A stretch of DNA of 64,000 nucleotides from a plasmid. How positions within the stretch are numbered: position 1 is the stretch's first letter; each line of letters opens with the position of its first letter. The notes under the pieces are model-generated. The model saw only the letters and a list, made by a program, of their open reading frames with translations. It had not been told where the DNA came from and did no database searches. Location: the sequence record NZ_CP044080.1, one strand, 5' to 3'. This document shows positions 10,789 to 33,891 of this stretch, in pieces. Both the position numbers and the translations under genes were made by a program.

Positions 10789-11807
10789 GCCAGCACCACC
10801 GCGATATCCGACAGGGCGCGGCTGGAGCAGGCAAGGATATAGCCCTGGGCTTGCTCCTCGGGCGTGATGCCGCCATTCGCAGCCATCACTACCTGGCCCG
10901 AGACCAGCTTGACCATGCAGGTGCCGCACATGCCTTCGCCGCAGCCGCAGGGGATGATGACGCCGTGGCGCAGGCTGGCTTGCAGCACGCTTTCGTCGGG
11001 GCGGATCGCCACGTCGCGGCCGGCGACCGTCATCGCGAAAGCCGGGCCGTCTTGGGCCACGGGGGCCGGGGCCGCCACGGGAACCGGCGCCCCGCCAAAG
11101 CTTTCGGTATGGAACTGTGCCTTGTCGCCGCCCTCGGCCGCGTGGATCAGCTGCGCCTCGGTCATGAAGCCCTGGGGCCCGCAGCAGAACACCTCGCGCC
11201 GCCCCAGATCGGGCAGGGCAGCGGCCAGCAGGGTGCGCGAGATGCGGCCGCGATAGCCGAACCAGCCGGGCGCCGGTCGGGTGACGCTGACCGCCACGCT
11301 GAGGTTTGGCATCCGCGCCTGCAATTCGGCCAGTTCGGCGGCGAACAGCACCTCGGCCGGCGCGCGGGCGGCGTGGAACCAGGCCACATCGGCCAGCGGC
11401 TCGGTCGCCGCAAGATGGCGCAGCATGGCGATCATCGGCGTCGCCCCCGACCCGCCCGAGACGAAGGCCAGCCGGTCATGGCATCGCAGCGCCAGCGTGA
11501 AATGGCCGCGCGGGCTGCGCGCCTGGACCCGCGCGCCGGGGGTCAGGTTCGCGTGCAGCCAGCGCGTCGCGCCGCCCTCGGCCTGCGCCTTGATCGTCAG
11601 TGCCAGGTCGCCATCCGTCCCGCCCGAGATGGTGAAGCTCCGCCAGACCGGCCCGCCGGGCAGCGGCACCCGCAGCACCAGCGCCTGGCCGGGGACAAAG
11701 CCCACCGGCGCCGCGCCGCGCAGCCGAAAGCTGCGGATCGTCGGGGTTTCATCCGCCACGCCGACACAGGTCAGCTCCAGCAGTCCGGCGTCGCCTGGCA
11801 TGGTCAT
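10785..11807 (-). CDS. Oxygenase reductase component: FNR-like FAD/NAD(P)-binding domain plus C-terminal plant-type 2Fe-2S ferredoxin (GbcB-like)
   Basis: RxFS flavin-binding motif (RSFTIS), NAD-binding region (AFVSGGSGATPM) and a C-terminal 2Fe-2S Cys cluster (CGCGEGMCGTCMV...C). 4-nt overlap with the upstream Rieske gene. Confidence 0.75.
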   Translation of the reverse strand: MTMPGDAGLLELTCVGVADETPTIRSFRLRGAAPVGFVPGQALVLRVPLPGGPVWRSFTISGGTDGDLALTIKAQAEGGATRWLHANLTPGARVQARSPRGHFTLALRCHDRLAFVSGGSGATPMIAMLRHLAATEPLADVAWFHAARAPAEVLFAAELAELQARMPNLSVAVSVTRPAPGWFGYRGRISRTLLAAALPDLGRREVFCCGPQGFMTEAQLIHAAEGGDKAQFHTESFGGAPVPVAAPAPVAQDGPAFAMTVAGRDVAIRPDESVLQASLRHGVIIPCGCGEGMCGTCMVKLVSGQVVMAANGGITPEEQAQGYILACSSRALSDIAVVLA

Positions 11808-13036
11808 TCCGCCGCCATCCGCGCCGCCGGTCCGCCGATGTGATCGGCCATCTTGCCCGCATACCAGTCCGAGAAGTTCCGCAGCATGAATTCGGAGGGC
11901 GCATAGGGGCCGGGCTTGTAGGCGCGGGACAGGATGCCGCGATGGTTGTTCTCGGCCAGGATCCGGTCCTCGTCATTGGTGGCGGTCCAGACCTCGGTCA
12001 GGCGCTGGATGTCGTAATCGACGCCCTCGACGGCGTCTTCGTGGACCAGCCAGGTCGTCCTGACGGCGGTGCGGTTGGCCGACAGCGGCAGGACGCGGAA
12101 GTGGATGATGTGGTCGGACAGGAAATGGTTCCAGTTGTTCGGCACGCGGAACATCCGCACCGAGCCAAGGTCGGGTTCGGTGAAGTCGGCGAGCAGCTTG
12201 TTGCAGGCGAGCCCCCCGTCCATGGTGAAGGACAGGCAGTTTTCGTTGAAGGGCAGACGGATGCAGCGGAACTCCAGCCCGCCGTCGGCCGGCTTGTGCG
12301 GCAGGCCCAGCCGGTCCCAGCGGTCGGTCGAACGGCCCATCAGCCCTTGGAACTGCGCCGCCACCAGCGGGTCGTCGGGCAGCGCGAATTCGACCAGCGT
12401 GACCAGCAGTTCCGGGTGGTTGCCCGCGCAATGATAACATTCGCGGTTGTTTTCGATCACCAACTTCCAGTTCGCTTCCTCGACGATAGTGGTCGAAAAG
12501 GCGACCTTGGTGCGATCGGGCCTGTGCGGTTCGATATAGGGCGTGACGCCCGCGCGGAACGCGGCCAGCGACGGCGGCTGGTCGGCGATGCAGACATAGA
12601 CCATGCCGCAGATCACCTCGACATGGACCGGGGCAAGACCATGCGCGGCCTTGTCGAAACCCTCGGGCATCTGGCGGGCGTTGATCAGCCTGCCGTCCAG
12701 TTCATAGACCCACTGGTGATAGGGGCAGACCAGCCGGTTCGCGCGACCCTGTTCCTTCTGGCAGATCAGCGATCCGCGATGGCGGCAGGTGTTGTGGAAT
12801 GCCGCCACCGCGCCGTCGCGGTTGCGCAGCACAACGATGGGATTGTCGCCGATCTGCAGGGTGACATAGTCGCCCGGGCGCGGGATCTCGGCCAGGTTGC
12901 AGGCGAACAGCCAGTCGGTTTCGAACACCGCCTTCATGTCGGCCCGAAAGATCTCCTCATCGACATAGAAGTCGCGCGGCAGCGAATGGCCGGGTTTGCG
13001 GTCCTGCAAGAGCTGGGCGATCCTGTCGTTCAGCAT
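11804..13036 (-). CDS. Rieske 2Fe-2S non-heme iron oxygenase, quaternary-amine N-demethylase family (GbcA / Stc2 / CntA-like)
   Basis: Rieske motif CRHRGSLIC...CPYHQW and a mononuclear iron site (NNRECYHCAGNHPEL). Lies beside a betaine-type ABC transporter and a GbdR-like regulator. Confidence 0.8.
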   Translation of the reverse strand: MLNDRIAQLLQDRKPGHSLPRDFYVDEEIFRADMKAVFETDWLFACNLAEIPRPGDYVTLQIGDNPIVVLRNRDGAVAAFHNTCRHRGSLICQKEQGRANRLVCPYHQWVYELDGRLINARQMPEGFDKAAHGLAPVHVEVICGMVYVCIADQPPSLAAFRAGVTPYIEPHRPDRTKVAFSTTIVEEANWKLVIENNRECYHCAGNHPELLVTLVEFALPDDPLVAAQFQGLMGRSTDRWDRLGLPHKPADGGLEFRCIRLPFNENCLSFTMDGGLACNKLLADFTEPDLGSVRMFRVPNNWNHFLSDHIIHFRVLPLSANRTAVRTTWLVHEDAVEGVDYDIQRLTEVWTATNDEDRILAENNHRGILSRAYKPGPYAPSEFMLRNFSDWYAGKMADHIGGPAARMAAE

Positions 13037-13789: not shown

Positions 13790-14377
13790 CTAGCGAGATC
13801 GCTCCAGCCGGCGCAGCATGTCGTGCGACCAGGCATAGGCCGGATCAAGGCTCAGGGCGTGGCGAAAGGCGGCGCGGGCCTCGTTCCGGCGCCCCAGCGC
13901 GGTCAGGCACATGCCCAGGTTGTGGTGCACGACCGCCCGCCTGGCATCCAGCGCCAGCGCACGGCGGTAAAGCGGCAGCGCCTTGGCAGGGCGGTCCATG
14001 TCGTAAAGGACGTTCGCGGCCTCGTTCCATGCGGGTTCATAGGCCGGGTCAAGTCCCAGTGCCACGTCGAAGGCCGCCAAGGCCGGCACGAACCGCCGCA
14101 GGTCGCGTAGCACCAGGCCCAGATTGCCCCAGTTCATCGCACGGCGCGGCCCCAGCCGGATGGCGGCGGCAAAGGCCTCGTGCGCCTCGGCCATCCGGCC
14201 CTGGGTCCACAGCACCGAACCCAGGCCACGCCAAGCGTCCTCGCCCGCCAGTTGCGCACGAAATGCCGCCTCGGCCGCGTCCAGCCGGCCCGCCCGCCAC
14301 AGATCGAAGGCGTGGGCCAGGCCGGGGTCGGCGGGGCGCCAGCCCTCCCACGCCGTGGGCGGTCCGTCAGCCGGCAA
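13790..14377 (-). CDS. Tetratricopeptide-repeat protein (last gene of the RiPP-like operon)
   Basis: Several 34-residue TPR-like units (W/LG/Y spacing, AxxAFxxALxLDPxY). 11-nt overlap with the upstream gene. Confidence 0.6.
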   Translation of the reverse strand: MPADGPPTAWEGWRPADPGLAHAFDLWRAGRLDAAEAAFRAQLAGEDAWRGLGSVLWTQGRMAEAHEAFAAAIRLGPRRAMNWGNLGLVLRDLRRFVPALAAFDVALGLDPAYEPAWNEAANVLYDMDRPAKALPLYRRALALDARRAVVHHNLGMCLTALGRRNEARAAFRHALSLDPAYAWSHDMLRRLERSR

Positions 14378-15005
14378 CGTGAAAGCACCCCGCCAGCATC
14401 ACCAGCCGTTCCCCGGCGGCCAGCGGCGGACGCAGATGCGCATGGCGCGAACCGAAGATCGCCGCCGCGCGATTGCTGCGCGCGGTCAGCCGCATCGCCA
14501 GTCCCGTGGCCGAGTTGTCGCCCCGAAAGATGAACAGCTGCATGCCGGGGCTGGGCTCGACCCCGTCGGGCCAGGCCGCGTCCAGATAGGTCAGCAGGTT
14601 GTATTTGCAGCTGTCGGCCTTGTCGCAATGCTCGCCCATGTGTTCGGAGGGGCCGGTGTATCGCGTGTAGCAGGTCGCGCTCCAGGACGGGGCGAGGCGT
14701 TCGCCGGTCAGCGCGTGCAGCCAGGCCACGACGGCGTCCGAGGACAGATAGCCCCGCGCGACGGGGCCCAGATGGGCGCGGCGGTTGTCCTGCGCGATCT
14801 CGCCCCGGTCGCGGCTGCCGGTCAGCTGCCAGCTTTCGGCATCAAGCTGACCCAGCGCTTCCTCCAGCAGGGCGCGGTGCAAGGCGGCGTTCAGCGCAGG
14901 GGGCCCAAGGACCGTGACGCCGGTGGCGCGGAAGGCGTCGACATGCGCCGGCCCAAGCGCGGAGGGGTCGGCGAAGACGGCGTCGGCAATGGGGGCGTCA
15001 GGCAT
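14367..15005 (-). CDS. Hypothetical protein, possibly a 2OG-Fe(II)-oxygenase-like (HxD...H) tailoring enzyme
   Basis: Candidate facial-triad residues (GEHCD...FGSRHAH). Translationally coupled to its neighbours by 8-nt and 11-nt overlaps. Confidence 0.4.
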   Translation of the reverse strand: MPDAPIADAVFADPSALGPAHVDAFRATGVTVLGPPALNAALHRALLEEALGQLDAESWQLTGSRDRGEIAQDNRRAHLGPVARGYLSSDAVVAWLHALTGERLAPSWSATCYTRYTGPSEHMGEHCDKADSCKYNLLTYLDAAWPDGVEPSPGMQLFIFRGDNSATGLAMRLTARSNRAAAIFGSRHAHLRPPLAAGERLVMLAGCFHVAG

Positions 15006-16194
15006 GGGCGGTCTCCTTCGGCAGGGCCTCGACGGCTTGGCGCAGGTCCTCCATCAGCCCGGCGCCGGCCGGGGTGGCGGTGCCGTTGTCGGACAGCACC
15101 CGCCAGCCCTGGCGCGTGTTCGCCGCCTGCCGGGCCAGCACCCCGCGCGCGAAGCGGGCCGAGGCCCCGCCCCGCGCCGCAAGCCGGTCATACCAGGCGC
15201 AGACGTTCAGAAAGGCGTGCACGCCCAGCAGCAGCCCGTCCAGCGGGCGCTTGTCGCTGCGCCAGGGGCTGTCAAAGCCCGCTGCCTCGGCTGCAGGGTC
15301 GGTCGCAACCACCAGCGGATCGACGGCCTTGGCCCAATGCATCCGCACATGGCTGGATTCGTGGCACAGGAGGTCGCCCACCGTTTCCGGCGCCCCCGCC
15401 GTCATCATGATCGTGCCGCAGAGCGATTGCGGCGAATGGCTGCGCTCATAGCCGCGCGGCGCCAGCAGGACCAGGCCCCGGACATGCCGCGCCAGCGTCT
15501 CGGCCGCCGCGGGCCAGACCTGCGCCATCAGCGCAAGGCCAGTCGCGATGCGGGCCATGGCGGCATGCAGCACCTCGCCCTCTGCCAGAGCGAAGGGCGC
15601 CAAGGCCGCCCGCACCGCAGGGTCGGCGTTCAGCACGTCAAGGCCGCCGATCCGGGGGGCTGCGTGGAACAGGGCGTTCCCGGTTCCGGGCGGTGCGGGG
15701 ATGCCGGTCGCGAAGGTTGCCGATACGCCGTCGTCGCGCATCAGCCCGACGCGGCCGCCGCTTTGGCGCAGGGCGATGACCCGCGCGCCGGGGGCGTGCA
15801 GGACGATGCGCAGATGCGGCAGCATCAGATCCGCCGCCAGATCGCCGCCGGTGAACACAAGGGTCAGATCCTCGATATCCGGGGCGCCGATCAGGTGGCG
15901 GGCCAGGGCTGCGCGTCGCTCGGCCAGGCTGCGCGGGTCCTTGACCCCGTCCGGCGCCGTGACCCCGGTATCGAGCGAGGCGAGCGGATGGCCAAAGACC
16001 CGCAGCCGCGCCGGTTCGGGGCAGGCCTTCAGGGCGCGCGCGACCTCGACCGCGCAGGGCTCGTCCGCGCCCTCCAGCATGTCCGCCGCGCGGCGCGCGC
16101 AATCCCGGGCCCAGAGCGCCTGCAGGTGGTCGATGCCCTGGCCGGGGGGGCCTGGAAAGACCAGCCCTGTCAGGTCGGATACCGGGCCGGTCAT
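14998..16194 (-). CDS. HExxH-motif peptide-modification protein (family that co-occurs with FxsB-type radical SAM/SPASM maturases; alphaKG-HExxH beta-hydroxylase-like)
   Basis: Single HExxH (LLCHESSHVRMHW). About 400 aa. ATGA overlap with the radical SAM gene stop. Confidence 0.65.
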   Translation of the reverse strand: MTGPVSDLTGLVFPGPPGQGIDHLQALWARDCARRAADMLEGADEPCAVEVARALKACPEPARLRVFGHPLASLDTGVTAPDGVKDPRSLAERRAALARHLIGAPDIEDLTLVFTGGDLAADLMLPHLRIVLHAPGARVIALRQSGGRVGLMRDDGVSATFATGIPAPPGTGNALFHAAPRIGGLDVLNADPAVRAALAPFALAEGEVLHAAMARIATGLALMAQVWPAAAETLARHVRGLVLLAPRGYERSHSPQSLCGTIMMTAGAPETVGDLLCHESSHVRMHWAKAVDPLVVATDPAAEAAGFDSPWRSDKRPLDGLLLGVHAFLNVCAWYDRLAARGGASARFARGVLARQAANTRQGWRVLSDNGTATPAGAGLMEDLRQAVEALPKETAHA

Positions 16195-17759
16195 GCCGCC
16201 ACCCGCGCGGGCGTGAAATCGTGCTGGAACCGCACGCCGCCCCCTTCGAAATAGGAACAGCGGTTCAGGTGGTCGAACGCCGCCGCGTCAAAGGACAGAA
16301 GATGCATCAGCCAGGGATAAAGCGTCTTGTAGAACGCACATTCCGGCGTCTTGTGGCGCACGGTCCCATAGCTTTCCCAGGCCTGCGCCGAACAGCCCGA
16401 CTGGCAGAGCTGCCGATAGGGGCAGACCGCACAATCGTCGAAATCCGCCGGCCGGCGGGACCGGATCTCGGCGATGCGGGCAGAGCGGCGGGCCGGCTGG
16501 GACAGGCTCTCGATGCCGTCGTCGAAGATGTTGCCCAGCCGCAAGCCCGGCGATTGCGTGGCCCGCCCGCAGGGATAGATATCGCCGTTCGCCGCGACGG
16601 ATTGAAAGCTGTCGCCCGCCCCGCACTCGGCCCGCATGCAGCGGGTGCGGCGCTGCTTGCTGGTCAGAAAGCGGCACATGGAATGGATGTTATCCTCAAG
16701 CAGCAGGTCGCGCCGTGCGATGACGCCGCGCAGCAGGGCCTGGAAGAACGCGATGATCTGGTCCTGGGTCAGCCCCACCCGGTCCCAGTTCTTGCGCGCG
16801 TCGCCCAGATAGGCGACCGGGTTCACCCGAAAGCCGTGGATCGCGTGCCCCAGCATAAAGGACACCAGCCCGTCGGGATCGCCGATGTTCATGCGGTTCA
16901 GCACCACGAGGCCCCCGAAGGGGACGCCGCCCTGCTGAAGCAGCTCGATCCCACGCATCAGCGCCGGAAAGCTGGCCTTGCCGTTCACCATGGGCCGCCC
17001 GCTGTTCTGCGCCTGCGCGCCCCCGTCCAGCGAGATGCCCACGCGGATGTCATTGTCGCGCAGCCAGTCCACGCGTTCGGGCGTCAGCAGCGTGGCATTG
17101 GTCTGGATCGACAGGAACACCGTCCGCCCGCTGGCCCCCGGGTGGTTGCGGATATGATCCACCAGCCGCTGCATGATCGCGAATTTCAGGAACGGCTCGC
17201 CCCCGGCGAATTCGAATGCCAGCACCCGCGCCTCGGTCATGGCAAAGGCCAGGTCGACCGAACGCAAAGCGATGGTTTCGTCCATCGCGGGCATCTTCTG
17301 GTTCGCGCCCGCCAGGCAATAGGGACAGGCGAGATTGCATTTCTCGGTCAGCAAAAGCTCGACCAGGTGGCCCTCGTCATAGTTCGGCCCGTCGGCGAAC
17401 ATCCCGGCATCGACCGCGCGGGCACCGTTCAGCGCGATCAGCCCGCGCCGCCACAGATGCGCCGCGAAATCCAGCGCGGCGTCGGCGCTGTCCATCCGGG
17501 CCGCCAGGGCGCCGAAATCCCGCCCGTCCATCCAGCGGTGCAACGCGGCCTCGTCCGGGTTCAGGAACGCCCATGAGGCGCTTTCGGGATGGATCGCCAG
17601 GGTCTCGCCCTGGACCCGGACCTGATCGACGCCCTCGGTCGACAGTCTTGTGTCAGGACGCAGCGTGACCTGGCCGAAGGGGGCATAGGTCTTGCCCTGG
17701 GTCGCGCCCAGCCAAGGCGCCTCGGCCGCGTCGCGAGAGGGACAAAAGACATAGCGCAT
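16191..17759 (-). CDS. Radical SAM/SPASM-domain peptide maturase (FxsB / three-residue-cyclophane-forming-enzyme-like) with a ~130-aa N-terminal extension
   Basis: CxxxCxxC (CNLACPYC), a G-rich SAM motif (FEFAGGEPF) and a C-terminal SPASM Cys cluster (CGAGDSFQ...YPCG...CAVCPYRQLCQSGCSAQ). Start MRYVF at 17757-17759 overlaps the stop of the upstream gene by 1 nt. Confidence 0.85.
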   Translation of the reverse strand: MRYVFCPSRDAAEAPWLGATQGKTYAPFGQVTLRPDTRLSTEGVDQVRVQGETLAIHPESASWAFLNPDEAALHRWMDGRDFGALAARMDSADAALDFAAHLWRRGLIALNGARAVDAGMFADGPNYDEGHLVELLLTEKCNLACPYCLAGANQKMPAMDETIALRSVDLAFAMTEARVLAFEFAGGEPFLKFAIMQRLVDHIRNHPGASGRTVFLSIQTNATLLTPERVDWLRDNDIRVGISLDGGAQAQNSGRPMVNGKASFPALMRGIELLQQGGVPFGGLVVLNRMNIGDPDGLVSFMLGHAIHGFRVNPVAYLGDARKNWDRVGLTQDQIIAFFQALLRGVIARRDLLLEDNIHSMCRFLTSKQRRTRCMRAECGAGDSFQSVAANGDIYPCGRATQSPGLRLGNIFDDGIESLSQPARRSARIAEIRSRRPADFDDCAVCPYRQLCQSGCSAQAWESYGTVRHKTPECAFYKTLYPWLMHLLSFDAAAFDHLNRCSYFEGGGVRFQHDFTPARVAA

Positions 17760-18622
17760 CAGGAGCTTCCTTGTAGAACAGGGACGAGGATGCGAACGCG
17801 GTCGCCATCGTGCCGAGGGCCGGGATGCCATCCGTCGGGGCCCAGGGCGATGTCGCGGCGCATCCGCGCCTCGATCCCGGCCAAAAGCGCGGGGGCCGTC
17901 CGCGCCAGCCCCCCGGCCAGACGCCGCGCGCGGGCAAGGCTGGTGGCGCAGGTCCAGGAACAGGGGAAATGTTCGGTCAGGACGGGACCGGCGTAGCGGG
18001 CAAAGACGTTCAACTCCCACGGCATCTCTGCCCCCTCCGGCCCCAGCCGCATCCGGCCCAGATCGCCCGCGCAATGCGTCACTGCCTGCGGCCAGTCGCG
18101 CAGGAACGCCTCGATGCAGCAGGGCGGATATCCCAGCGCAAGGCCCATGACCCGGTCCCAGCCCCGCGCCTCGGCCAGCCACAGCAGCCAGGCCAACGAC
18201 GCTGAGGCCGAGACGGCGACCGCCCGCCATTCCCCCGCCGCGCCGCTTGCCGGCACCCGCGCCGCGGCAAGGTTCGCATAGCCCCCCAGGCCCGCGTCCC
18301 GCTGGGGCAGGAAGGCCCAGGCCGAGGGCATGGCGGTCAGCGACCGCCGCCGCGCCCAGTCGCAGACGCCGGCGATCCAGGGCTCGGGCCCGTGCAGCAG
18401 GACTGCCGGCCGCAAGCCGGCGGCCAGCATCTCAAGCTCAGCCACGGTGCCGATGGGGGCGCCGGGCCCGGCCGCGGGGATGGCCGGGCCCGGCAGCTCG
18501 TCCTCGGGCCCATCCGGGATCGCGGCCAGCAGCGCGTCGGGCAGTCCCAGGGCCTGGGCACGGGCGCGCACCGACAGTCCCCCTTCGCCGGACCTTGGCG
18601 AGGGCGCTTTGGCGCGGTGCAT
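17759..18622 (-). CDS. Conserved hypothetical Cys-rich protein in the RiPP-like operon (candidate partner/peptidase/scaffold)
   Basis: Open frame between the precursor stop (7-nt gap) and the radical SAM start (1-nt overlap). Motifs GYPPCCIEAF, HCAGD and FPCSWTCATS. Confidence 0.5.
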   Translation of the reverse strand: MHRAKAPSPRSGEGGLSVRARAQALGLPDALLAAIPDGPEDELPGPAIPAAGPGAPIGTVAELEMLAAGLRPAVLLHGPEPWIAGVCDWARRRSLTAMPSAWAFLPQRDAGLGGYANLAAARVPASGAAGEWRAVAVSASASLAWLLWLAEARGWDRVMGLALGYPPCCIEAFLRDWPQAVTHCAGDLGRMRLGPEGAEMPWELNVFARYAGPVLTEHFPCSWTCATSLARARRLAGGLARTAPALLAGIEARMRRDIALGPDGWHPGPRHDGDRVRILVPVLQGSS

Positions 18623-18629
18623 GGGCGGC

Positions 18630-19256
18630 CTAGCGCCGGATGCGGGTGCCGCGCACCGTCATGTCAAAGGCCCCGGTCGCGGGCACATCGACGCGCAACC
18701 CGCCCGGCAGCGTGACCCGGGTCAGATCGCGGCCGGGGTTGAGGACCGTCGAGGGGTCGAAATTGGCATGCCCGCCCCCGTTCACGAAGCCCGGCGGCCC
18801 CGAGTTCACATGCGAGCCCGCAATCGAGCCGGGGTCGAAATTCGCGTGCCCGCCGCCGTTCACGAAACCGGGTGGGCCGGAATTCACATGCGTTCCCGTG
18901 CCCCCCGAGGGGTCGAAGTTCGCATGGCCCCCGCCGTTCACGAAGCCCGGAGGCCCCGAGTTGACATGCACCCCGGCAATCGAGCCGGGATCGAAGTTCG
19001 CGTGCCCGCCGCCGTTCACGAAACCGGGTGGGCCCGAATTGACATGCGCCCCCGAGATGCCGCCCGGATTGCGGATCGCGCCGATGGCGCTGGCCACCTC
19101 GGTGCGCAGGATCGCGGTCAGGTCCTTGAGCGAAAGATCCGCCAGCTTGGTCTCGGGCGCAAGCGACCTGCCTTGGGATGCAGGGCGGTCGGCCTCGGGA
19201 TCACTGCCTGGGGTCGTCGATTGGCCTTCCTTGGAACCCTTGGGTTCTTGTGCCAT
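18630..19256 (-). CDS. Putative multi-core RiPP precursor: ~68-aa leader, four tandem 26-aa core repeats (HVNSGPPGFVNGGGHANFDP) and a ~40-aa C-terminal tail
   Basis: GGAGA Shine-Dalgarno 8 nt upstream of the ATG. Four ~78-bp DNA repeats (18750-19052) differ mainly at synonymous positions, so the peptide repeat is conserved. Immediately upstream of the maturase genes. Confidence 0.6.
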   Translation of the reverse strand: MAQEPKGSKEGQSTTPGSDPEADRPASQGRSLAPETKLADLSLKDLTAILRTEVASAIGAIRNPGGISGAHVNSGPPGFVNGGGHANFDPGSIAGVHVNSGPPGFVNGGGHANFDPSGGTGTHVNSGPPGFVNGGGHANFDPGSIAGSHVNSGPPGFVNGGGHANFDPSTVLNPGRDLTRVTLPGGLRVDVPATGAFDMTVRGTRIRR

Positions 19257-19416
19257 GACTGAGTCTCCGTTTGCTTCAATAGAAAGTCCCAGATGTCGGA
19301 TGGATCTGGGCAGAGTCTTCCAGTCGAAAAATCACTGCAAACAGTTCGTTCAGATTACCCCAGAACAGGGATTCGAACAATCCCGCATCGCAGGCGCAAA
19401 GGCTTGCGCAGCGCCC

Positions 19417-20616
19417 CTATTGCCCGGCCGGGATCAGGGACGGATCGGCGGCCAGCGTCGTTCCGGGACTGGGCTGGGGCTCGGCGCCCTCTTCGAGTAC
19501 GCGGGCCGGCGCCGTCACCACGGCGCCCAGCGTGTGCAGCGTGCCGGCCGCGACCATGAAGATGCTGCCTCCAGAGCCGTTGTCGCTGGTCAGCCGCTGG
19601 CCCTGTGCCAGCTTGCGCCCGATCAGCCGCACGATGTCGGGGCTTTCGGCAAAGCGCGAATGGTGCGTGCCGCCCGGCACGTCGATCTGGCTCAGGTCGA
19701 TGGCGTCGATCCCCGCCTGCAGCAGGGCGGTGCGATAGGGTTCGCGCGAGGGGTCGATTTCGCCCACGCGCTCGACCCGACCCGCGATCAGCCGCGACAG
19801 ACCCAGTGCGCGGTCGTCCTTGGCCATGAAGATGGTGAAATGCGGGCGCGGGGCGGCCATTTCAATGAACTGGCGGGAAAACACCTCGATGTCGATATCG
19901 GGCGAGGCGAGGACCACGTCACGGATCTTGGGATTCACGGGGCCGCTGCGGATGCTCATCTGGCGCAGCGATTCCATGGTCAGGAAGGCGCCCATGGAAT
20001 GGGCCAGGATGGTGATCTGCGTGACCGAGGAGTCGTCCGCCAGGATTCGCAGCGACTGTTCCAGCGCGGTGCGGGAATAAAGCGCGCTTTCGCGGTCATA
20101 GTTATAGCCGACGGGGCTTCCACGCGACGGCCAGGTGAACAGGATCGGTGTCGCCGCCACATCGCCGTCATGCGCGATCTGGGCCAGCCGATAGACCGCC
20201 TCGCCATAGGTCGTGTTGAACCCGTGAACGAACAGCAGCACATGGCCGCCGACGCGGTGCTGGCGCATCCAGGCCCGGCCCTGCGCCACCGAACTGATGT
20301 CCTGCACCTGGCGGACGTGGAAATCGGTCGTCGGCTGGGGCGGACGGGTGCGCGGCCACTGGATCGTGCCACTGGGGCGGTTCGCGGGGATCCCCACCTT
20401 GACCGCGTCGAGATGCAACTGCGGGTCGCGCCGGCCGCCGTAACGCTCGGCCCGGTCGGTCAACATCTGGCGGTTGGTGGCCACCAGAACATCGACCGCA
20501 GGGCCGGTCTCGACCGGGGCCACGACCGGCTGCATCAGCCCGGTCGGCCGGGGCGAGCAGGCCGACAGCATTCCCGTCAGCAGGACCAGAAGGATCGCCA
20601 GCCGCACCGGCATCAA
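19417..20616 (-). CDS. Alpha/beta-hydrolase-fold lipoprotein (DUF900-type serine hydrolase)
   Basis: Lipobox (LLTGMLSAC), nucleophile elbow (LAHSMGAF) and the alpha/beta hydrolase order. Confidence 0.65.
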   Translation of the reverse strand: MMPVRLAILLVLLTGMLSACSPRPTGLMQPVVAPVETGPAVDVLVATNRQMLTDRAERYGGRRDPQLHLDAVKVGIPANRPSGTIQWPRTRPPQPTTDFHVRQVQDISSVAQGRAWMRQHRVGGHVLLFVHGFNTTYGEAVYRLAQIAHDGDVAATPILFTWPSRGSPVGYNYDRESALYSRTALEQSLRILADDSSVTQITILAHSMGAFLTMESLRQMSIRSGPVNPKIRDVVLASPDIDIEVFSRQFIEMAAPRPHFTIFMAKDDRALGLSRLIAGRVERVGEIDPSREPYRTALLQAGIDAIDLSQIDVPGGTHHSRFAESPDIVRLIGRKLAQGQRLTSDNGSGGSIFMVAAGTLHTLGAVVTAPARVLEEGAEPQPSPGTTLAADPSLIPAGQ

Positions 20617-22958: not shown

Positions 22959-23160
22959 GCGCCGTTCCCTTTCCTTACCCTGCCTTGCCTGAATGAAAGG
23001 CACCTTGCGCCGGATTGCCGCCCGCGAACCTGACATTTGCGGCCAAAGCCACAGGGCGCGCGACGATGCGTCGCGACTCTGGCCGGGAATGACAAGAACC
23101 TGCCCGCCGCTGGCGCTTTTCTGGACCTCATCGCGATCGGGCCATTCCCGACAAGCCACA

Positions 23161-24129
23161 GGAAGCCGCCAGATGAAGCCACTGACCCGAACCGCCCTGG
23201 TCTCTGCCGCCGCCCTTGCCGCCGCCCCGGCGCTGGCGGTCAGCGGCGAGGACGTCCTGCAAAACGCCTGCGCCGCCTGCCACGTCAAGCACGAAGACGG
23301 CCGGTGGGAACGCATCGACGCCGTCCGCAAGACGCCCGAGGGCTGGGACATGACGGTGACGCGGATGATGCGCAATCACGGCGTCGCGCTGGAACCGCAA
23401 GAGCGGGCGGCTGTGGTCCGCTACCTGTCCGACACCCGCGGTCTGACGCCCGAAGAAGCCGAGGGGCGCCGCTATATCCTGGAACGCGAACCAGTGGCCT
23501 TCGACGAGGGTCCCGATACGCTGATGACCCAAACCTGCGGCCGATGCCATTCCTATGCCCGCGTCGCCCTGCAACGCCGCACGCCCGAGGATTGGGCGCA
23601 TCTGGTGAACTTCCACCTGGGCCAGTTCCCGACGCTGGAATACCAGGCGCTGGCGCGGGATCGCGACTGGTGGGGCATCGCCCAGGCCGAGATCATTCCC
23701 TTCCTCGCCAAGACCTATCCGCTGGGCGAGGCGCCGCCCGCCTTTGCCGGCGACGCTTCGGGCGACTACGTCCTGGCTGGGCGCCAGCCGGGGCGTGGCG
23801 ACTATACCGGACGGCTGGCGCTGACGAAAGCGGGTGACGATTACGCCGTGACCATGACGCTGGACTTCGCCGACGGCAGCGCAAGCTACAAGGGCACCGG
23901 CCGCATCCTGGGCGCCGGCGAATGGCGCGCGACGCTGAGCGACGGCAAGACCGGGATCCGCCAGGTCCTTGTTTTTCACGACGGCCGCTTCGACGGGCGC
24001 TGGTACCACGCCGACAGCGACGTGATCGGCGGCAGACTGGCGGCGGTGACGATGCGGGGCTTTTTACGCCAGGCGACGCCGGGCCGAACCCGGAACGCCC
24101 GATGCAGACCAACAACGCGGGCAACCTGA
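23161..24129 (+). CDS. Diheme c-type cytochrome with signal peptide (QhpA-like alpha subunit of quinohemoprotein amine dehydrogenase; probably frameshifted near the 3' end)
   Basis: Signal peptide MKPLTRTALVSAAALAAAPALA. Two CxxCH motifs (CAACH, CGRCH) about 90 residues apart. The apparent authentic C-terminus continues in another frame to 24227. Confidence 0.55.
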   Translation, partial: GSRQMKPLTRTALVSAAALAAAPALAVSGEDVLQNACAACHVKHEDGRWERIDAVRKTPEGWDMTVTRMMRNHGVALEPQERAAVVRYLSDTRGLTPEEAEGRRYILEREPVAFDEGPDTLMTQTCGRCHSYARVALQRRTPEDWAHLVNFHLGQFPTLEYQALARDRDWWGIAQAEIIPFLAKTYPLGEAPPAFAGDASGDYVLAGRQPGRGDYTGRLALTKAGDDYAVTMTLDFADGSASYKGTGRILGAGEWRATLSDGKTGIRQVLVFHDGRFDGRWYHADSDVIGGRLAAVTMRGFLRQATPGRTRNARCRPTTRAT

Positions 24130-24204
24130 AGGTCATCGCCACCGTGGACACGGGTGGCGTGCCGCTGACCGCCGAGGCGCATCTTTACGCCACGGTTCAG
24201 CGCT

Positions 24205-25584
24205 TTGTCGACGCGCCGATCCGGTGACGCCATGGGAGCCCTGACCCTGATCCGCCACAATGCCCGCCGGGTCGATGTCGACGGCCATGCCATGCTGATG
24301 TATGTGCCGACGACCAGCCTGTTCGAGCTCGACGGCGTGGCGCGCGACGTCTATGACCTGTTCCGCAGCGCGCCCGCCGTAGACCCAGACCTGATGCGGG
24401 CGCGGCTGGGCCGGCACAGCCCGGACACGCTGGCCGACTGCCTGCACAGCTTCCTGGCGCTCGACATCCTGCGTGACGCCGATGCGGCGGATACCCCCCG
24501 CCCGATCACGAAGGTCGAGGGGATTCCGCTGTCCACGATCATCCTGAACGTGAACACCGGCTGCAACCTGGCCTGCACCTATTGCTACAAGGAGGACCTG
24601 ACCACCCCCGCCAAGGGCCAGAAGATGGGCTTTCACACGGCGCGCGCCAGTTTCGAGCTGCTGCCGAAGCAGGCCCATGCCCGCGACCGGGTGAACGTGG
24701 TGTTCTTTGGCGGCGAGCCGCTGTCGAACATGCCGCTGATCCGCGAAGTGGTGGCCTATGCCCTGCCGCGCGCGGCGGAGCTGGGCAAGACGGTCGATTT
24801 CTCGCTGACCACCAATGCGACTCTGCTAATGCCCGACCTGGTCGACTGGTTCGACGCGCATCGCTTCGCGCTGACGGTCAGCATGGACGGGCCCAAGGTG
24901 CTGCACGACCAGAACCGCAAGACGGTGGGCGGCAAGGGCACCTATGACCTGGTGGCGCGCAATGTGCGCATGCTGCTCGCGCGCTATCGTTCGCGACCGG
25001 TCGGCGTACGGGTGACGCTGACGCGCGGCGTGACCGACGTCATCGGCATCCACGACCACCTGAAGAACGATCTCGGCTTCCACGAGGTCGGCTTCGGCCC
25101 GGCGACCTCGGGGCCGATCGCGGTATTCAACCTGGATCAGCAGGCGCTGCAAGCCGCCTTCGAGGACATGAAGACCCTGGGCCGACGCTATGTCGAGGCC
25201 GCCTGCCGGGGCGAGAATATCGGTTTTTCCAACATGCACCAGTTGCTGACCGACATCGCCCAAGGCACCAAGAAGGCCGTGCCCTGCGGCGCCGGGCTGG
25301 GAATGCTTGCCGTGGACAAGGAGGGCGATCTGCACCTCTGCCACCGCTTCGTCGGCTCGAACCAGCCGACCTATGGCAATGTCGCGCAGGGCATCGACGT
25401 GCCGGGGTCGTCGTATCGCGCCTTGGCCCGGCTATTCCCTGTTGCTGCCGACTTTAGCACAGGCGGGCCGCGACCTCTCAAAAAGCTGCGCCTTGGCGGC
25501 CCGGCCGGTGCGACGTCGCGAAGCCCTTGCGAATACGACAGTTTTGCGACGGATCGCGGCGATGGACGCCCGAGACGAACCTGA
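24205..25584 (+). CDS. Radical SAM protein, anSME/QhpD-like; the distal SPASM half appears degenerate
   Basis: CxxxCxxC (CNLACTYC), GGEP motif and the start of a SPASM domain (PCGAGLG...GDLHLCHRF). No further Cys cluster follows in any frame. Alternative start MGALT at 24232. Confidence 0.6.
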   Translation: MSTRRSGDAMGALTLIRHNARRVDVDGHAMLMYVPTTSLFELDGVARDVYDLFRSAPAVDPDLMRARLGRHSPDTLADCLHSFLALDILRDADAADTPRPITKVEGIPLSTIILNVNTGCNLACTYCYKEDLTTPAKGQKMGFHTARASFELLPKQAHARDRVNVVFFGGEPLSNMPLIREVVAYALPRAAELGKTVDFSLTTNATLLMPDLVDWFDAHRFALTVSMDGPKVLHDQNRKTVGGKGTYDLVARNVRMLLARYRSRPVGVRVTLTRGVTDVIGIHDHLKNDLGFHEVGFGPATSGPIAVFNLDQQALQAAFEDMKTLGRRYVEAACRGENIGFSNMHQLLTDIAQGTKKAVPCGAGLGMLAVDKEGDLHLCHRFVGSNQPTYGNVAQGIDVPGSSYRALARLFPVAADFSTGGPRPLKKLRLGGPAGATSRSPCEYDSFATDRGDGRPRRT

Positions 25585-25646
25585 CATTTCCGGCCAGATT
25601 TCCGGCCCCTGTCCCAGACTCGCCAGAAGGGTCCAGGAGGGGTGAG

Positions 25647-27050
25647 ATGACCGAATACAGACTGCTGATCGATGGAAAGCTGGTGCACGGCGACATGACC
25701 ATGGCGGTCGTTAACCCCGCCACCGAACAGGTGCTGGCCCGGGCGCCGCGCGCGTCCAGGGGGCAGCTCGACACCGCGGTGGCCGCGGCCAAGGCAGCCT
25801 TTCCGGCTTGGGCCGCACGCCCGATCAATGATCGGCGCGCGCTGATCCTGCGGATCGCCGACCAGCTTGAGGCACGGGCCGAGGAATTCGCCCGGCTGCT
25901 GACGCAGGAACAGGGCAAGCCCCTGCCCGAGGCGCAGGCCGAGATTGCCTACACCTGCGCCTTCATCCGCCACCTTGCGGGCTACGACCTGCCTGTGAAG
26001 GTGATCGAGGACAATGACAACCGGCTTGTCCGGCAGTTCCGCAAGCCGCTGGGGGTGGTGGGGGCGATCATCCCGTGGAACTTCCCGGTGCTGATTGTGG
26101 CCTTCAAGCTGCCGCTGGCACTGCTTGCCGGCAATACGATGGTGGTGAAGCCCGCACCGACCACGCCGCTGACCACGCTGAAGCTGGGCGAGATCATCGC
26201 CGAGATCCTGCCGCCGGGCGTGGTCAACATCGTCACCGACCAGAACGACCTGGGCCCGGCGCTGACGGCACACCCCGACGTTGCCAAGATCAGCTTCACC
26301 GGCTCGACCGCGACGGGGCAAAAGATCATGGCCAGCGCGGCATCAACCATCAAGCGGCTGACGCTGGAACTGGGCGGCAACGACGCGGCCATCGTGTTGC
26401 CGGGCGCCGATCCGGCCAAGGTTGCGCCGGGACTGTTCGCGGGCGCCTTCATGAATGCCGGACAGGTCTGCCTGGCGATCAAGCGCGCCTATGTCCACGG
26501 CTCGATCTATGACGAGGTCTGCGCCCGGCTGGCCGAACTGGCCGAAGCCGCCGTGGTCGGCGACGGCCTGCAGCAGGGCACCACCATCGGCCCGCTGCAA
26601 AACCGCATGCAGTTCGACAAGGTCAAGGCTCTGCTCGACTCGGCCCGCGCTGACGGTCGCATCATCGCGGGTGGCACACTGCCCGACGGGCCAGGCTATT
26701 TCATCCGCCCCACCATCGTCGCAGACGTCGCGGACGGCCATCGCATCGTGGACGAGGAACAGTTCGGTCCGATCCTGCCGGTGATCCGCTTCGACGATGT
26801 CGAGGCGGCCGTCGCCAGCGCCAACGGGCTGGACCTTGGCCTTGGCGGCTCGGTCTGGGGCGAGGACCATGACCTGGCCCGGAGCGTGGCCGAGCGCATC
26901 GACAGCGGCACGGTCTGGATCAACAAGCACCTGGATTTCGGACCGAACATCCCGTTCGGGGGTGCCAAGCAATCAGGGCTTGGCGTCGAGTTCGCCGAGG
27001 AGGGCCTGGCCGAGTTCACCCAGGTCCGCATCGTCAACGAGGCGCGCTGA
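25647..27050 (+). CDS. NAD(P)-dependent aldehyde dehydrogenase
   Basis: ALDH motifs (ELGGNDAAIV catalytic Glu; FMNAGQVCLAIKR catalytic Cys). AGGAGG-like RBS before the ATG at 25647. Confidence 0.85.
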   Translation: MTEYRLLIDGKLVHGDMTMAVVNPATEQVLARAPRASRGQLDTAVAAAKAAFPAWAARPINDRRALILRIADQLEARAEEFARLLTQEQGKPLPEAQAEIAYTCAFIRHLAGYDLPVKVIEDNDNRLVRQFRKPLGVVGAIIPWNFPVLIVAFKLPLALLAGNTMVVKPAPTTPLTTLKLGEIIAEILPPGVVNIVTDQNDLGPALTAHPDVAKISFTGSTATGQKIMASAASTIKRLTLELGGNDAAIVLPGADPAKVAPGLFAGAFMNAGQVCLAIKRAYVHGSIYDEVCARLAELAEAAVVGDGLQQGTTIGPLQNRMQFDKVKALLDSARADGRIIAGGTLPDGPGYFIRPTIVADVADGHRIVDEEQFGPILPVIRFDDVEAAVASANGLDLGLGGSVWGEDHDLARSVAERIDSGTVWINKHLDFGPNIPFGGAKQSGLGVEFAEEGLAEFTQVRIVNEAR

Positions 27051-27683: not shown

Positions 27684-28793
27684 ATGGGTCCGTTCCCGCA
27701 CGATGCCCCGAAGGCCACGATCAGCCCGGCAAACCCCGCCGGCACCGACGGCTTCGAATTCGTCGAATTCGCCCATCCCAACTCTGCGGTTCTGGACCGG
27801 GTCTTTCGCCAGATGGGCTTTGTTCCGGTCGCCCGGCACCGGACCAAGGACATCACGCTGTATCGCCAAGGCGACATCAACTATCTGCTGAACGCCGACC
27901 CGGACAGCCATGCGGCCGGCTTCGTCGGGGAACACGGGCCCTGCGCGCCGGCCATGGCCTGGCGGGTGGTCGATGCGCAGGTCGCGTTGAAACGCGCGCT
28001 GGACCTGGGCGCCACCGAATACACCGGCCCCGGCAAATCCATTGGGGCGCCCGCCGTCTACGGCATCGGCGGCTCGCTTCTGTATTTCATCGACAAATAT
28101 GGCGCCGAAGGCAGTGCCTATGAGGCCGATTACGCCTGGCTGGACGAGGTGAACCCCCGCCCCGAAGGCTTTGGCTTCTACTACCTCGACCACCTGACGC
28201 ACAATGTCATCCGCGGCAACATGGACACCTGGTACAGGTTCTACCACGACACGTTCAACTTCCGCGAGATCAAGTATTTCGATATCAGGGGCAGGCAGAC
28301 CGGCCTGGTCAGCCGGGCGCTGACCTCGCCCGACGGCAAGATCCGCATCCCGATCAACGAATCCACCGACGACCGCAGCCAGATCGAGGAGTACCTGCGC
28401 AGGTACAAGGGCGAGGGCATCCAGCACATCGCCATCGCAACCGAGGACATCTATGCCGGCACCGACCGTATCGCCGAAGCCGGCATGACGTTCATGCCCG
28501 GCCCGCCCGACACCTATTACGAAATGTCGCACAAGCGGGTGAGGGACCATCAGGAACCCGTCGAGCGCATGAGGAAGCACGGCATCCTGATCGACGGCGA
28601 AGGTGTGGTCGGCGGCGGCGAAACCCGCATCCTGCTGCAGATCTTCTCGAAGACGGTGATCGGCCCGATCTTCTTCGAGTTCATCCAGCGCAAGGGCGAC
28701 GATGGCTTCGGCGAGGGCAACTTCCGCGCGCTTTTCGAATCGATCGAGGAGGACCAGATCCGTCGCGGGGTCCTGAAGGCCACCACTGCGTGA
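27684..28793 (+). CDS. hppD: 4-hydroxyphenylpyruvate dioxygenase
   Basis: HPPD hallmarks (GFEFVEFAHP; HIAIATEDIY; IFFEFIQRKGDDGFGEGNFRALFESIE). AGGAGG RBS at 27673-27678. Confidence 0.85.
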   Translation: MGPFPHDAPKATISPANPAGTDGFEFVEFAHPNSAVLDRVFRQMGFVPVARHRTKDITLYRQGDINYLLNADPDSHAAGFVGEHGPCAPAMAWRVVDAQVALKRALDLGATEYTGPGKSIGAPAVYGIGGSLLYFIDKYGAEGSAYEADYAWLDEVNPRPEGFGFYYLDHLTHNVIRGNMDTWYRFYHDTFNFREIKYFDIRGRQTGLVSRALTSPDGKIRIPINESTDDRSQIEEYLRRYKGEGIQHIAIATEDIYAGTDRIAEAGMTFMPGPPDTYYEMSHKRVRDHQEPVERMRKHGILIDGEGVVGGGETRILLQIFSKTVIGPIFFEFIQRKGDDGFGEGNFRALFESIEEDQIRRGVLKATTA

Positions 28794-28865
28794 TACGTGT
28801 AGAGCCCAAGAAGCCTTTATAGGCGCCCTTCAGCGCATCAGCAATCAGCGGTCGGTATCGGACGC

Positions 28866-30161
28866 TCAGCACGTATCGCGCAGATGGCACTGCAACTGAT
28901 CGGCGAACCAGATGTTTCGCATGGGGTTCATACCCCATGATTGCATGTAGAAATGCGCGATATGGGACGGAATCCGGGTCCCGTCGCTGACCACAAGTTG
29001 CGCGGCCAGGGCACCCCCGGGGCTAAGCTGGTCCGCATAGGCAAGGCTGTCGCGCAGATAATCCATATCGCTGTCGGAGCGGCCATCGGGAAGGTTTCCC
29101 TTGCCGATCTGCGCCCGCTGGCAGGCTTCGCTAAGCGGCTTGCCACCTCGAACATAGGGAAGAAAGGCGATATCTGGCCGAGGTTCTCGTTTGAGGCAGG
29201 CGTTGACATAGGAAAGGCTGTTGGTGATGTAGCCGAATTGAGGCCCTTCCGCTCCTGAACCGTTGATGGTGCGGGTCGCATTCCAGAGGTGCCTGCTGCG
29301 ATCACGAAACAGCGCGGGGTCCTCTGCAACAAGCGCATAAGGATAATCGATCACGATTTCCGATATGGTGACAGAGTCCGGGCTGTCGGTCTGCAGCTTG
29401 GAAAAGGCAGTTAGGACGTCGACAAGATCCACGCTTGTGCCGCCGCCGCGTCTGGGCAGGCCTCGCAGTCGCCAGTTTGGAAGATTGACCACAAGCCGCA
29501 ATTGCGGAGGGGTGCCGTTATTTGCCTTGGTCACCAACTCGCGCATTTCGACCAGGTAAGAATGAACCGTCCGTACCGTCGTGTCGATATCGAAGCTTTT
29601 CTTGACCTTCAAACAACCGGCCTGCTTCGTTGATCCTTCGATCAAACGCAGGAAAGGGCCATCGACGTTCAGCGCAAGGATAGAAATCCCGGCGTTGGAC
29701 AGGCGCTGCAAGGATTGGTCGAACTCTTGCCGAGCCGCATGCCGACCCCGTTCCTCGGGCGAGAAACCCTGCCTGCACGCATCACCAGACAGGCCCGCCC
29801 CCGCCTCGTAACTGATCGAAAAGCCAAGATCGCGCTGCAGCCGGGCCAAGGCATCAAGATCGGCCTGCCGCAGGTAAGTCTCCTCTGGGCGGGAAATATA
29901 GGTCCCGTTCTCATTCCTGCCAAACCGCAGTTCGCTTTTCATCAGGAACGTGCCATTCAGTAGGATTTCCTGGACCCCAGCCTCATGCAGGTTCCTCCAT
30001 ACCGGTACTGTGTCGGCGCCAAACAGCGTCTGATTGTCAAGCGCGCGCGGACTCGGGCCAAACACGATGTCGGCTTCCGCCCGCGCTGGCACTGCCGACA
30101 GCACCGCCAGTGACAGGGAAAGAGCCAGCGACTTTGCCCAAGTCCGCACGGGAGCCATCAT
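28866..30161 (-). CDS. Secreted hypothetical protein (signal peptide) in a lower-GC polysaccharide-related island
   Basis: Signal peptide MMAPVRTWAKSLALSLSLAVLSAVPARA. 4-nt overlap with the upstream glycosyltransferase. GC is lower than the genome background. Confidence 0.5.
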   Translation of the reverse strand: MMAPVRTWAKSLALSLSLAVLSAVPARAEADIVFGPSPRALDNQTLFGADTVPVWRNLHEAGVQEILLNGTFLMKSELRFGRNENGTYISRPEETYLRQADLDALARLQRDLGFSISYEAGAGLSGDACRQGFSPEERGRHAARQEFDQSLQRLSNAGISILALNVDGPFLRLIEGSTKQAGCLKVKKSFDIDTTVRTVHSYLVEMRELVTKANNGTPPQLRLVVNLPNWRLRGLPRRGGGTSVDLVDVLTAFSKLQTDSPDSVTISEIVIDYPYALVAEDPALFRDRSRHLWNATRTINGSGAEGPQFGYITNSLSYVNACLKREPRPDIAFLPYVRGGKPLSEACQRAQIGKGNLPDGRSDSDMDYLRDSLAYADQLSPGGALAAQLVVSDGTRIPSHIAHFYMQSWGMNPMRNIWFADQLQCHLRDTC

Positions 30162-33834: not shown

Positions 33835-33862
33835 AAAGGCTGGCCCCGAAAGGCCAGCCTGC
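33835..33862 (-). terminator. Candidate stem-loop terminator downstream of terC
   Basis: Inverted repeat AGGCTGGCC-ccgaa-GGCCAGCCT about 30 nt past the terC stop. The minus-strand trailing sequence is only partly T-rich (TTTGCTTTCT). Confidence 0.3.
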
Positions 33863-33891
33863 AGCACCCGCGATCAAATCGGAACGAACGA

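Follow-up and report, generated by a model that had tools for sequence, protein, structure and literature searches.

A conserved six-gene cassette on a Paracoccus yeei plasmid: candidate pathway for a RiPP-type peptide with tandem cores and triceptide-like motifs

Among the peptides that are made on the ribosome and modified after translation (RiPPs), triceptides are characterised by aromatic-X-X motifs, in which the aromatic ring is cross-linked to the beta-carbon of the third residue. Documented rings include HAA (HaaB), HNR (YhhB) and HTK (HtkB), which start with histidine, while asparagine serves as the acceptor in the xenorceptide ring WVN (XyeB/XncB) (PMC11499958; bioRxiv 10.1101/2024.12.16.628070). 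Alpha-ketoglutarate (aKG)-dependent enzymes of the aKG-HExxH type beta-hydroxylate Asp and His after cyclophane formation (ChlH), or Gln and Asn; PflC and PosC act on the beta-carbon of Gln (Asn in a mutant substrate) and also catalyse oxidative backbone cleavage (PMC12636437). Both types of chemistry are combined in the ChlB/ChlH triceptide pathway of Morishita et al. (2024), which, according to a published summary, comprises a radical S-adenosylmethionine (rSAM) cyclophane synthase and an aKG-HExxH beta-hydroxylase that acts after the cyclophane has formed (PMC12636437). Here we describe a cassette of six genes in a stretch of 64,000 nucleotides (“the window”) of a Paracoccus yeei plasmid (sequence record NZ_CP044080.1). 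The genes code for a repeat-containing precursor, a Cys-rich protein (termed protein X), an rSAM/SPASM enzyme, an HExxH protein, a 2-oxoglutarate (2OG) oxygenase and a tetratricopeptide repeat (TPR) protein (Table 1), and they probably constitute an uncharacterised RiPP-type pathway, predicted from the sequences to introduce triceptide-like His/Phe-to-Asn cross-links and hydroxylations into a repeated core.

The precursor comprises a leader helix, a set of core repeats and a conserved C-terminal follower. The preliminary description of this locus, made from the letters of the window, had reported a four-fold tandem core, and the four copies of HVNSGPPGFVNGGGHANFDP are indeed exact. The tandem repeat period in the precursor gene is 78, and any two copies differ at 4-11 of 60 DNA positions, all of them third-codon positions and all synonymous, with 14 of the 20 codons being variable. 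The plasmid pYEE46822P13 from strain CCUG 46822 carries the same cassette with 101 differences in 5467 positions. Codon changes between the two plasmids are 12 synonymous and 0 non-synonymous in the precursor gene and 22 synonymous and 0 non-synonymous in the rSAM gene, the product of which is 100% identical, while silent changes number 8-12 and replacement changes 5-9 in each of the other four genes. The silent-only differences among core copies and between strains imply that the precursor open reading frame (ORF) is translated and that the peptide is under strong constraint.

The six genes follow each other closely, with a 7-nt gap and then overlaps of 1, 4, 8 and 11 nt according to the ORF coordinates, and the ATG of the precursor is preceded at 8 nt by the Shine-Dalgarno sequence GGAG. 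The mechanically called ORF of the rSAM gene reaches up to position 18230; the ATG at 17759 overlaps the stop codon of the gene before it by a single base, and the homologues of the enzyme begin with MRYVF..., which is the sequence starting at this ATG. A consensus scan upstream of the precursor gene yielded no sigma-70-like promoter and no promoter or terminator signals above background. RefSeq lists an identical set of six genes of equal lengths for P. yeei FDAARGOS_252, where they are named TPR protein, hypothetical, [quoted passage not shown], radical SAM protein, hypothetical and hypothetical. All six minus-strand ORFs lie where the preliminary description had placed them, with the junctions that it gave. 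Three other P. yeei plasmids are 98% identical; NCBI annotates these six genes at equal lengths on them, and all three are typed as non-mobilizable. We propose that the six genes form one translationally coupled operon, which represents a self-contained maturation cassette for a RiPP-type peptide.

The cassette is by no means confined to Paracoccus. A scan of one genome per species, based on full-length rSAM proteins 46-100% identical to that of the window, produced 22 loci of distant bacteria, and a neighbourhood comparison, as had been suggested earlier, revealed the order precursor-X-rSAM-HExxH-oxygenase-TPR in the same orientation in all of them. Gaps occur only at contig ends: the precursor is missing from L009 and truncated at the edge in L013, and the last three genes are missing from L010. 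The genes for protein X and the rSAM enzyme overlap by 1-4 nt in many loci. Proteobacterial hosts comprise Paracoccus and a Sphingomonadaceae metagenome-assembled genome (MAG), Marinobacter, Chromatiales and other Gammaproteobacteria, as well as Nitrosospira, Nitrosovibrio and another Betaproteobacterium; the other hosts are Nitrospira, Acidobacteria and Bryobacterales, a cyanobacterium, Myxococcales and Longimicrobiales. The gene order is therefore kept across at least eight bacterial phyla or classes. Nitrifiers (Nitrosospira, Nitrosovibrio and Nitrospira) account for 8 of the 22 loci. The precursor of a Nitrospira MAG (L011, 6134-6835) has the spacer motif N-x-G-D-V/L-G-R-A-G in common with the Nitrosospira/Nitrosovibrio precursors of L005, L008 and L020, which suggests transfer of the cassette between nitrifiers of different phyla.

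An all-against-all comparison of the flanks disclosed no seventh conserved gene, be it a protease, a transporter or a regulator, and neither did the metagenomic contexts of the cassette, which are heterogeneous. This agrees with the preliminary description, which had seen no transporter or dedicated peptidase in the window. Additions are lineage-specific: Nitrosospira carries a gene resembling flavin amine oxidases, and the gammaproteobacterial group has a prolyl 4-hydroxylase (P4H)-like gene that is transcribed divergently. Since no flanking gene is shared across lineages, the six genes appear to form a mobile unit that is sufficient by itself and includes no protease or exporter of its own. 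The loci also bear on the trivial explanation that the six genes are accidental neighbours and the repeat ORF is no real gene. In its favour, one might only cite the absence of an above-threshold Pfam family for four of the six proteins. The explanation is practically inconceivable given that stops and starts overlap, some loci have the oxygenase gene fused to the TPR gene and NCBI annotates the genes; moreover, chance is excluded by the identical gene order in 22 distant loci together with the purely synonymous variation of the repeats.

Homologues of the precursor form 85 database clusters, every one of which is annotated as “hypothetical”, and the window precursor matches no NCBIfam model. 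Most precursors, including that of the window, share a hydrophilic N-terminus, an amphipathic leader motif (roughly (K/R)-L-x-(D/E)-L-T-(I/L/V)-x-D-L-(T/S/N)-(A/S)-I) and a C-terminal follower, the motif of which (V-T-L-P-x-G...P-x-x-G...R-G-x-x-I-x-R) is present in 62 of the 85 clusters. The number of cores per precursor varies between one and eight. The 351 repeat units (38 distinct sequences) from the database clusters and the loci yielded the consensus H-(V/A)-N-S-G-P-x-x-(F/H)-x-N-x-(G/P)-G-H-A-(N/D)-F. Positions H1, N11, H15 and F18 are invariant, and so is N3 by construction, because NSGP was the anchor used to find the units. Position 9 is H in 23 distinct units, F in 14 and V in one, and position 17 is N, with D in one unit type only.

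The consensus defines three aromatic-X-Asn triads per core at positions 1-3, 9-11 and 15-17, corresponding to H-V-N, F-V-N and H-A-N in the window. An exchange between F and H at position 9 retains an aromatic ring, and the restriction of this position to F or H (with a single V) is as predicted for a ring donor. Cys is absent from 82 of the 85 precursor clusters, the other three have none inside the core, and Trp and Tyr are essentially absent, leaving His and Phe as the aromatic residues. The lack of Cys in any core excludes thioether chemistry; hence, membership in the sactipeptides or ranthipeptides finds no support across the 85 clusters, nor in the score against the thioether maturase PapB (150 bits at a cut-off of 340). 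For cores devoid of Cys, Trp and Tyr that contain three conserved aromatic-X-Asn triads, a C-C bond of the triceptide type is the most likely product, and the assignment is drawn solely from these triads. Characterised triceptides resemble the window core in the three-residue aromatic-X-X motif, the use of a His donor (through C2) and the use of an Asn beta-carbon as acceptor; they differ in that the window maturase stays below the cut-off of each of their families. A literature search turned up neither such a combination of H-x-N or F-x-N rings nor an 18-residue unit that contains three such triads and recurs 3-8 times.

A divergent group of precursors, of the gammaproteobacterial type (L017-L019, L021 and P0083), has a Sec-like signal peptide at the start and no follower. 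Its cores contain three His each, and its spacers consist of 14-16% Met and about 15% Gln. These features hint at a periplasmic, perhaps metal-related product in this branch. In the window precursor a signal peptide is missing, each core contains only two His, and the spacers are free of Met. In the precursor gene of L021 (6198-7184) the frame shifts after the second core, such that the third core lies in another frame, reflecting either an assembly error or a decaying gene.

The putative maturase contains the domains Radical_SAM (PF04055, E 1.9e-15), Fer4_12 (PF13353) and SPASM (PF13186, 24.4 bits at a cut-off of 21.5). In an alignment of 12 homologues the cysteines of the Cx3Cx2C motif (C141, C145, C148) and the SPASM cysteines C374, C379, C443, C446, C452, C456 and C474 do not vary, whereas conservation of C397 is 90% or higher. 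The enzyme has more than 515 homologues in the databases, and its N-terminal domain of about 130 amino acids (aa) is conserved as well. The enzyme matches 68 rSAM maturase models of NCBIfam, none of them near the cut-off, with the highest scores for DynA (151 bits, cut-off 450), PapB (see above) and anSME (135 bits, cut-off 349). The closest solved structures are CteB, anSME and ChlB. Falling far below every named maturase family, the rSAM protein represents a separate clade of SPASM peptide maturases. DynA (NF041298), which provides the best NCBIfam score, is likewise an rSAM/SPASM enzyme and makes cyclophane rings in a Gram-negative RiPP; yet the score of the window protein amounts to one third of the DynA cut-off, the precursors are unrelated (that of the window having no Trp or Tyr) and the accessory genes differ.

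The HExxH protein passes the cut-off of TIGR04267 (aKG-HExxH-type peptide beta-hydroxylase) with 89.6 versus 40 bits over model positions 3-176 of 177. The residues H278-E-x-x-H282, P-W311-R312-x-D314-x-R316-P and H326 are invariant in 19 orthologues, and the alignment with an HExxH-domain protein of solved structure (PDB 22nu, E 1.6e-9) spans both the HExxH and the PWRxDxRP motif, while the match to ChlH (8s5f) is weak (E 0.009 over 72 residues). The protein is probably an Fe(II)/aKG-dependent peptide beta-hydroxylase, as judged from its family and motifs. PflC and PosC are also stand-alone aKG-HExxH enzymes in RiPP clusters; these clusters harbour an MNIO-nitroreductase and no rSAM gene, and their precursors contain a run of Gln and an ARMD tail, neither of which occurs here. 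The ChlBH pathway resembles the cassette in that an rSAM/SPASM enzyme is paired with an aKG-HExxH hydroxylase, the precursor carries several aromatic-X-X motifs, and the HExxH protein of the window passes the NCBIfam model shared with that system. In contrast to ChlBH, the two enzymes of the cassette are separate proteins, and the match between the window rSAM and ChlB is weak (35 bits). Moreover, the cassette also comprises a TPR protein, a canonical 2OG oxygenase and the DUF483-like protein X, and its precursor has a tandem multi-core architecture with a follower.

The fifth gene encodes a protein with the double-stranded beta-helix fold of 2OG oxygenases and a facial triad. The residues H126, D128, H190 and R192, which form the HxD...H triad and the basic 2OG-binding residue, are invariant in sets of 16 and of 45 sequences. 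A PDB profile search was performed with trimmed sequences, because fused ones gave mostly TPR matches, and aligned the HxD motif and the distal His with PolD (9blq). No Pfam or NCBIfam family is matched at E<=0.01. The sixth protein was assigned by TPR families of Pfam. The oxygenase and the TPR protein are fused as one ORF in L015, L017, L018, L019 and L021 as well as in the database proteins P0228 and P0231, indicating that the two proteins act together. In collagen prolyl 4-hydroxylase, a TPR-type module presents the peptide to the oxygenase. The same applies to AspH (PMC6817910). The oxygenase-TPR pairing of the cassette recalls both enzymes; however, no membership in their sequence families is detectable (no Pfam match), and in the fusions the oxygenase is located N-terminal to the TPR part. 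An extra P4H-like 2OG oxygenase (HxD...H...K, with an N-terminal CPHC motif) is encoded divergently from the precursor in L017 (4890-5576, minus strand), L018 (5225-5962, minus strand) and L021 (5221-6171, minus strand); the window lacks this gene of the gammaproteobacterial type of locus.

The invariant residues of the Cys-rich protein X include H77, N117, R133, G-Y-P-x-C168-C169 and H218-F-P-C221...C225. All 17 orthologues compared match DUF483 (PF04467) around G-Y-P-x-C-C below threshold (best E 1.1e-4), the window protein reaching 16 bits at a gathering threshold of 25. No Pfam or NCBIfam family was found above threshold, and no structural match was obtained. We regard protein X as an obligatory component of the cassette, perhaps acting as a metal-binding scaffold or a processing enzyme. 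A database protein of 1070 aa (P0253), which contains X and oxygenase domains, was not used as evidence for a fusion; its Ala-rich middle part, devoid of an rSAM or HExxH match, marks it as an unreliable gene call.

The gene assignments made in the preliminary description all hold up: the rSAM/SPASM domains, the HExxH and HxD...H oxygenase-like proteins and the TPR protein are borne out by the family matches and motifs, and its Cys-rich hypothetical protein remains without a family above threshold. It had further likened the cluster to the Fxs type; the maturase, however, is not of the FxsB type. TIGR04269 (FxsB) is not among the 25 best families of the rSAM protein, which consequently scores less than 69 bits against a cut-off of 370. 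The cassette shares with the FXS system (FxsA/FxsB/HExxH; TIGR04267-04269) a TIGR04267 protein beside an rSAM/SPASM maturase, but differs from it in a maturase that is not FxsB and a precursor without an NCBIfam match. The label “triceptide-like” is sustained by the three conserved triads of the core, and fails for the enzyme, which belongs to no named triceptide-synthase family.

The analysis shows which genes are present, to which families and folds the enzymes belong, that synteny is kept and that the peptide is under selection; from the sequences we infer which modifications are made and where, in what order they follow, and what the product does. The N-terminal helix of the precursor, and perhaps also its C-terminal follower, would dock the precursor to the enzymes. 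The rSAM/SPASM enzyme would cross-link each core of 18-20 residues by a C-C bond between a His or Phe ring and the beta-carbon of Asn, possibly generating up to three small cyclophanes per core and 12 per window precursor. The aKG-HExxH enzyme would then beta-hydroxylate residues in the cross-linked core, and the 2OG oxygenase, guided by its TPR partner, may add a further hydroxyl group, for which the invariant Pro of N-S-G-P or an Asn are candidates. Protein X would take part at some step, perhaps as a metal-binding scaffold or in processing. Finally, release and export may be performed by functions encoded elsewhere, or the product might remain one multi-module polypeptide.

A number of observations weigh against this scheme. 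The rSAM protein falls into no characterised cyclophane-synthase family, and its best NCBIfam matches span different chemistries (DynA, the thioether enzyme PapB and anSME). The scores against triceptide synthases are low (AmcB, 94 bits at a cut-off of 425; GrrM/OscB, 86 at 310; YhhB, 74 at 445), and XyeB, like FxsB, lies outside the 25 best families. No PqqD or RiPP recognition element was detected with Pfam in the first 135 aa of eight rSAM orthologues, even at E<=5, and no peptidase or exporter is conserved with the cassette in the loci compared. Furthermore, it is unusual for antibiotic-like RiPPs to keep the same core in different phyla, and the presence of Sec-type signal peptides in some members speaks more for export of a modified protein than for excision of a small peptide. 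Lastly, the cross-link and hydroxylation chemistry is deduced throughout from sequence.

As an alternative, the rSAM enzyme might carry out another reaction on the precursor, such as a C-N or C-O cross-link (as in dynobactin or darobactin), an epimerisation or an anSME-like oxidation at C-alpha/C-beta, the triads being kept for recognition or as hydroxylase substrates. DynA, PapB and anSME all outscore the triceptide synthases, and the closest solved structures include CteB and anSME. In addition, Asn and Asp are classical substrates of beta-hydroxylases (position 17 is N or D), and the Asn residues could thus be conserved for the two oxygenases alone. However, scores so far below the cut-offs reflect only the shared rSAM/SPASM scaffold, thioether formation is impossible without Cys, and the restriction of position 9 to Phe or His is predicted for an aromatic donor and would not be needed at a hydroxylase site. 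Another rSAM reaction is therefore a lesser possibility, and triceptide-type cross-linking is preferred.

The strong conservation of the core raises the issue of what the product is for. A core that is nearly invariant across phyla, together with Sec signal peptides in one sub-group, suggests a physiological role rather than that of a typical variable antibiotic. The same enzymes might produce an uncut modified polypeptide that serves as an exported multi-module metal-binding protein (e.g., for copper) or gives rise to a peptide-derived cofactor, in which case the His/Asn-rich cross-linked modules would be the functional sites. The cores of the pyrroloquinoline quinone (PQQ) and mycofactocin precursors are likewise nearly invariant. 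A product of this kind would also match the lack of a conserved protease or transporter, the resemblance of the conserved follower to a small folded domain and the divergent branch with its Sec-like signal peptides, three His per core and Met-rich spacers. Nitrifiers, which contribute 8 of the 22 loci, depend on copper enzymes. Conversely, the window precursor has none of the traits of the divergent branch, no gene for copper or metal homeostasis recurs beside the cassette, and vertical descent in a single genus may simply account for the many nitrifiers. Taken together, such an end-product appears unlikely for the cassette.

A bolder version of this idea, which we hold to be quite unlikely, is a novel, physiologically conserved peptide-derived factor built from tandem modules of three His/Phe-Asn cyclophanes plus hydroxyl groups, being a metal ligand (e.g., for copper) or a cofactor precursor and not an antibiotic, with protein X as a new kind of RiPP-pathway enzyme. 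Such a factor would explain both a near-invariant core from Cyanobacteria to nitrifiers to Paracoccus and the Sec signal and Met-rich linkers in one branch.

The kind of system is known, namely an rSAM/SPASM plus aKG-HExxH RiPP cluster with a triceptide-like motif. NCBIfam, Pfam, RefSeq names and searchable papers hold no description of the precursor family, of the rSAM clade, of the obligatory DUF483-like protein, of the oxygenase-TPR pair or of the arrangement of several tandem cores with a leader and a follower. The core strings occur in no paper of the searchable literature, and none links cyclophanes or rSAM precursors with Nitrosospira; the sole co-mention of Paracoccus is an unrelated paper on a copper-binding lanthipeptide-like compound. 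The earlier view that the cluster is undescribed is thereby upheld. If the proposal is correct, the cassette stands for a widespread, unexplored RiPP-type family, which counts at least 85 clusters of precursors and over 500 homologues of the rSAM enzyme. It would supply defined new substrates and probably new ring types (His-x-Asn and Phe-x-Asn cyclophanes, with three of them in 18 residues), on which two iron hydroxylases of different kinds would then act, and it would provide the first functional context for the DUF483-like family and for an orphan clade of 2OG oxygenase-TPR pairs. The conservation of the core across phyla and the frequency of the cassette in ammonia and nitrite oxidisers would point to a role such as metal handling. 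The host P. yeei is a culturable opportunistic human pathogen.

Table 1. Features of the cassette and its precursor (window positions, or residues of the precursor where marked aa)
Feature	Position	Strand	Remarks
Precursor gene	18630..19256	-	208 aa, no Cys/Trp/Tyr; first of the six genes
Cys-rich protein X gene	17759..18622	-	287 aa; DUF483 relative, sub-threshold
Radical SAM/SPASM maturase gene	16191..17759	-	522 aa from the ATG at 17759
aKG-HExxH-type peptide beta-hydroxylase gene (putative)	14998..16194	-	398 aa
Prolyl-hydroxylase-like Fe(II)/2-oxoglutarate oxygenase gene	14367..15005	-	212 aa
TPR protein gene	13790..14377	-	195 aa, TTG start; presumed peptide-binding partner of the 2OG oxygenase
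Upstream intergenic region	19257..19416	-	presumed promoter region of the operon, assumed from position
Leader	aa 1-70		conserved helix motif K-L-A-D-L-S-L-K-D-L-T-A-I-L-R-T-E
Core repeat 1	18987..19046	-	HVNSGPPGFVNGGGHANFDP
Core repeat 2	18909..18968	-	peptide as in repeat 1
Core repeat 3	18831..18890	-	peptide as in repeat 1
Core repeat 4	18753..18812	-	peptide as in repeat 1
Follower	aa 169-208		RVTLPGGLRVDVPATGAFDMTVRGTRIRR

Directly upstream of the precursor gene and on the same strand, the window contains a gene for a DUF900 alpha/beta hydrolase (19417-20616, minus strand) with a lipoprotein-like N-terminus (LLTGMLSAC). As it is absent beside the cassette in the other lineages compared, the hydrolase is probably unrelated to the cassette. 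Just past the TPR gene, the alpha subunit of a Rieske ring-hydroxylating oxygenase is encoded in the window (11804-13036, minus strand) and also in the unrelated metagenomic locus L031 (13896-15047, minus strand), which is probably a coincidence.

About 4 kb from the cassette, a second and unrelated rSAM system is located at 22993-27050 on the plus strand. The ORF 22993-24129 matches the alpha subunit of quinohemoprotein amine dehydrogenase, only over model positions 6-288 of 510. It is followed by a QhpD-type rSAM/SPASM maturase (24205-25584; TIGR03906, 600 bits, model positions 1-384 of 467) and an aldehyde dehydrogenase ORF (25527-27050). At the corresponding place, P. yeei FDAARGOS_252 harbours a full peaA-peaB-qhpC-peaD-subtilisin-ABC operon, and in comparison the operon of the window looks truncated or rearranged, or else its ORFs are split by frameshifts.

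Two further regions of the window deviate in base composition. Positions 28000-34000 have a G+C content of 0.55-0.60, versus about 0.68-0.71 elsewhere, and the large ORFs in this stretch (28866-30161, 30158-32443 and 32427-33443) match no NCBIfam model; the stretch may be a foreign insertion. Between positions 42000 and 46000 the AT skew is strongly negative (-0.17 to -0.33).

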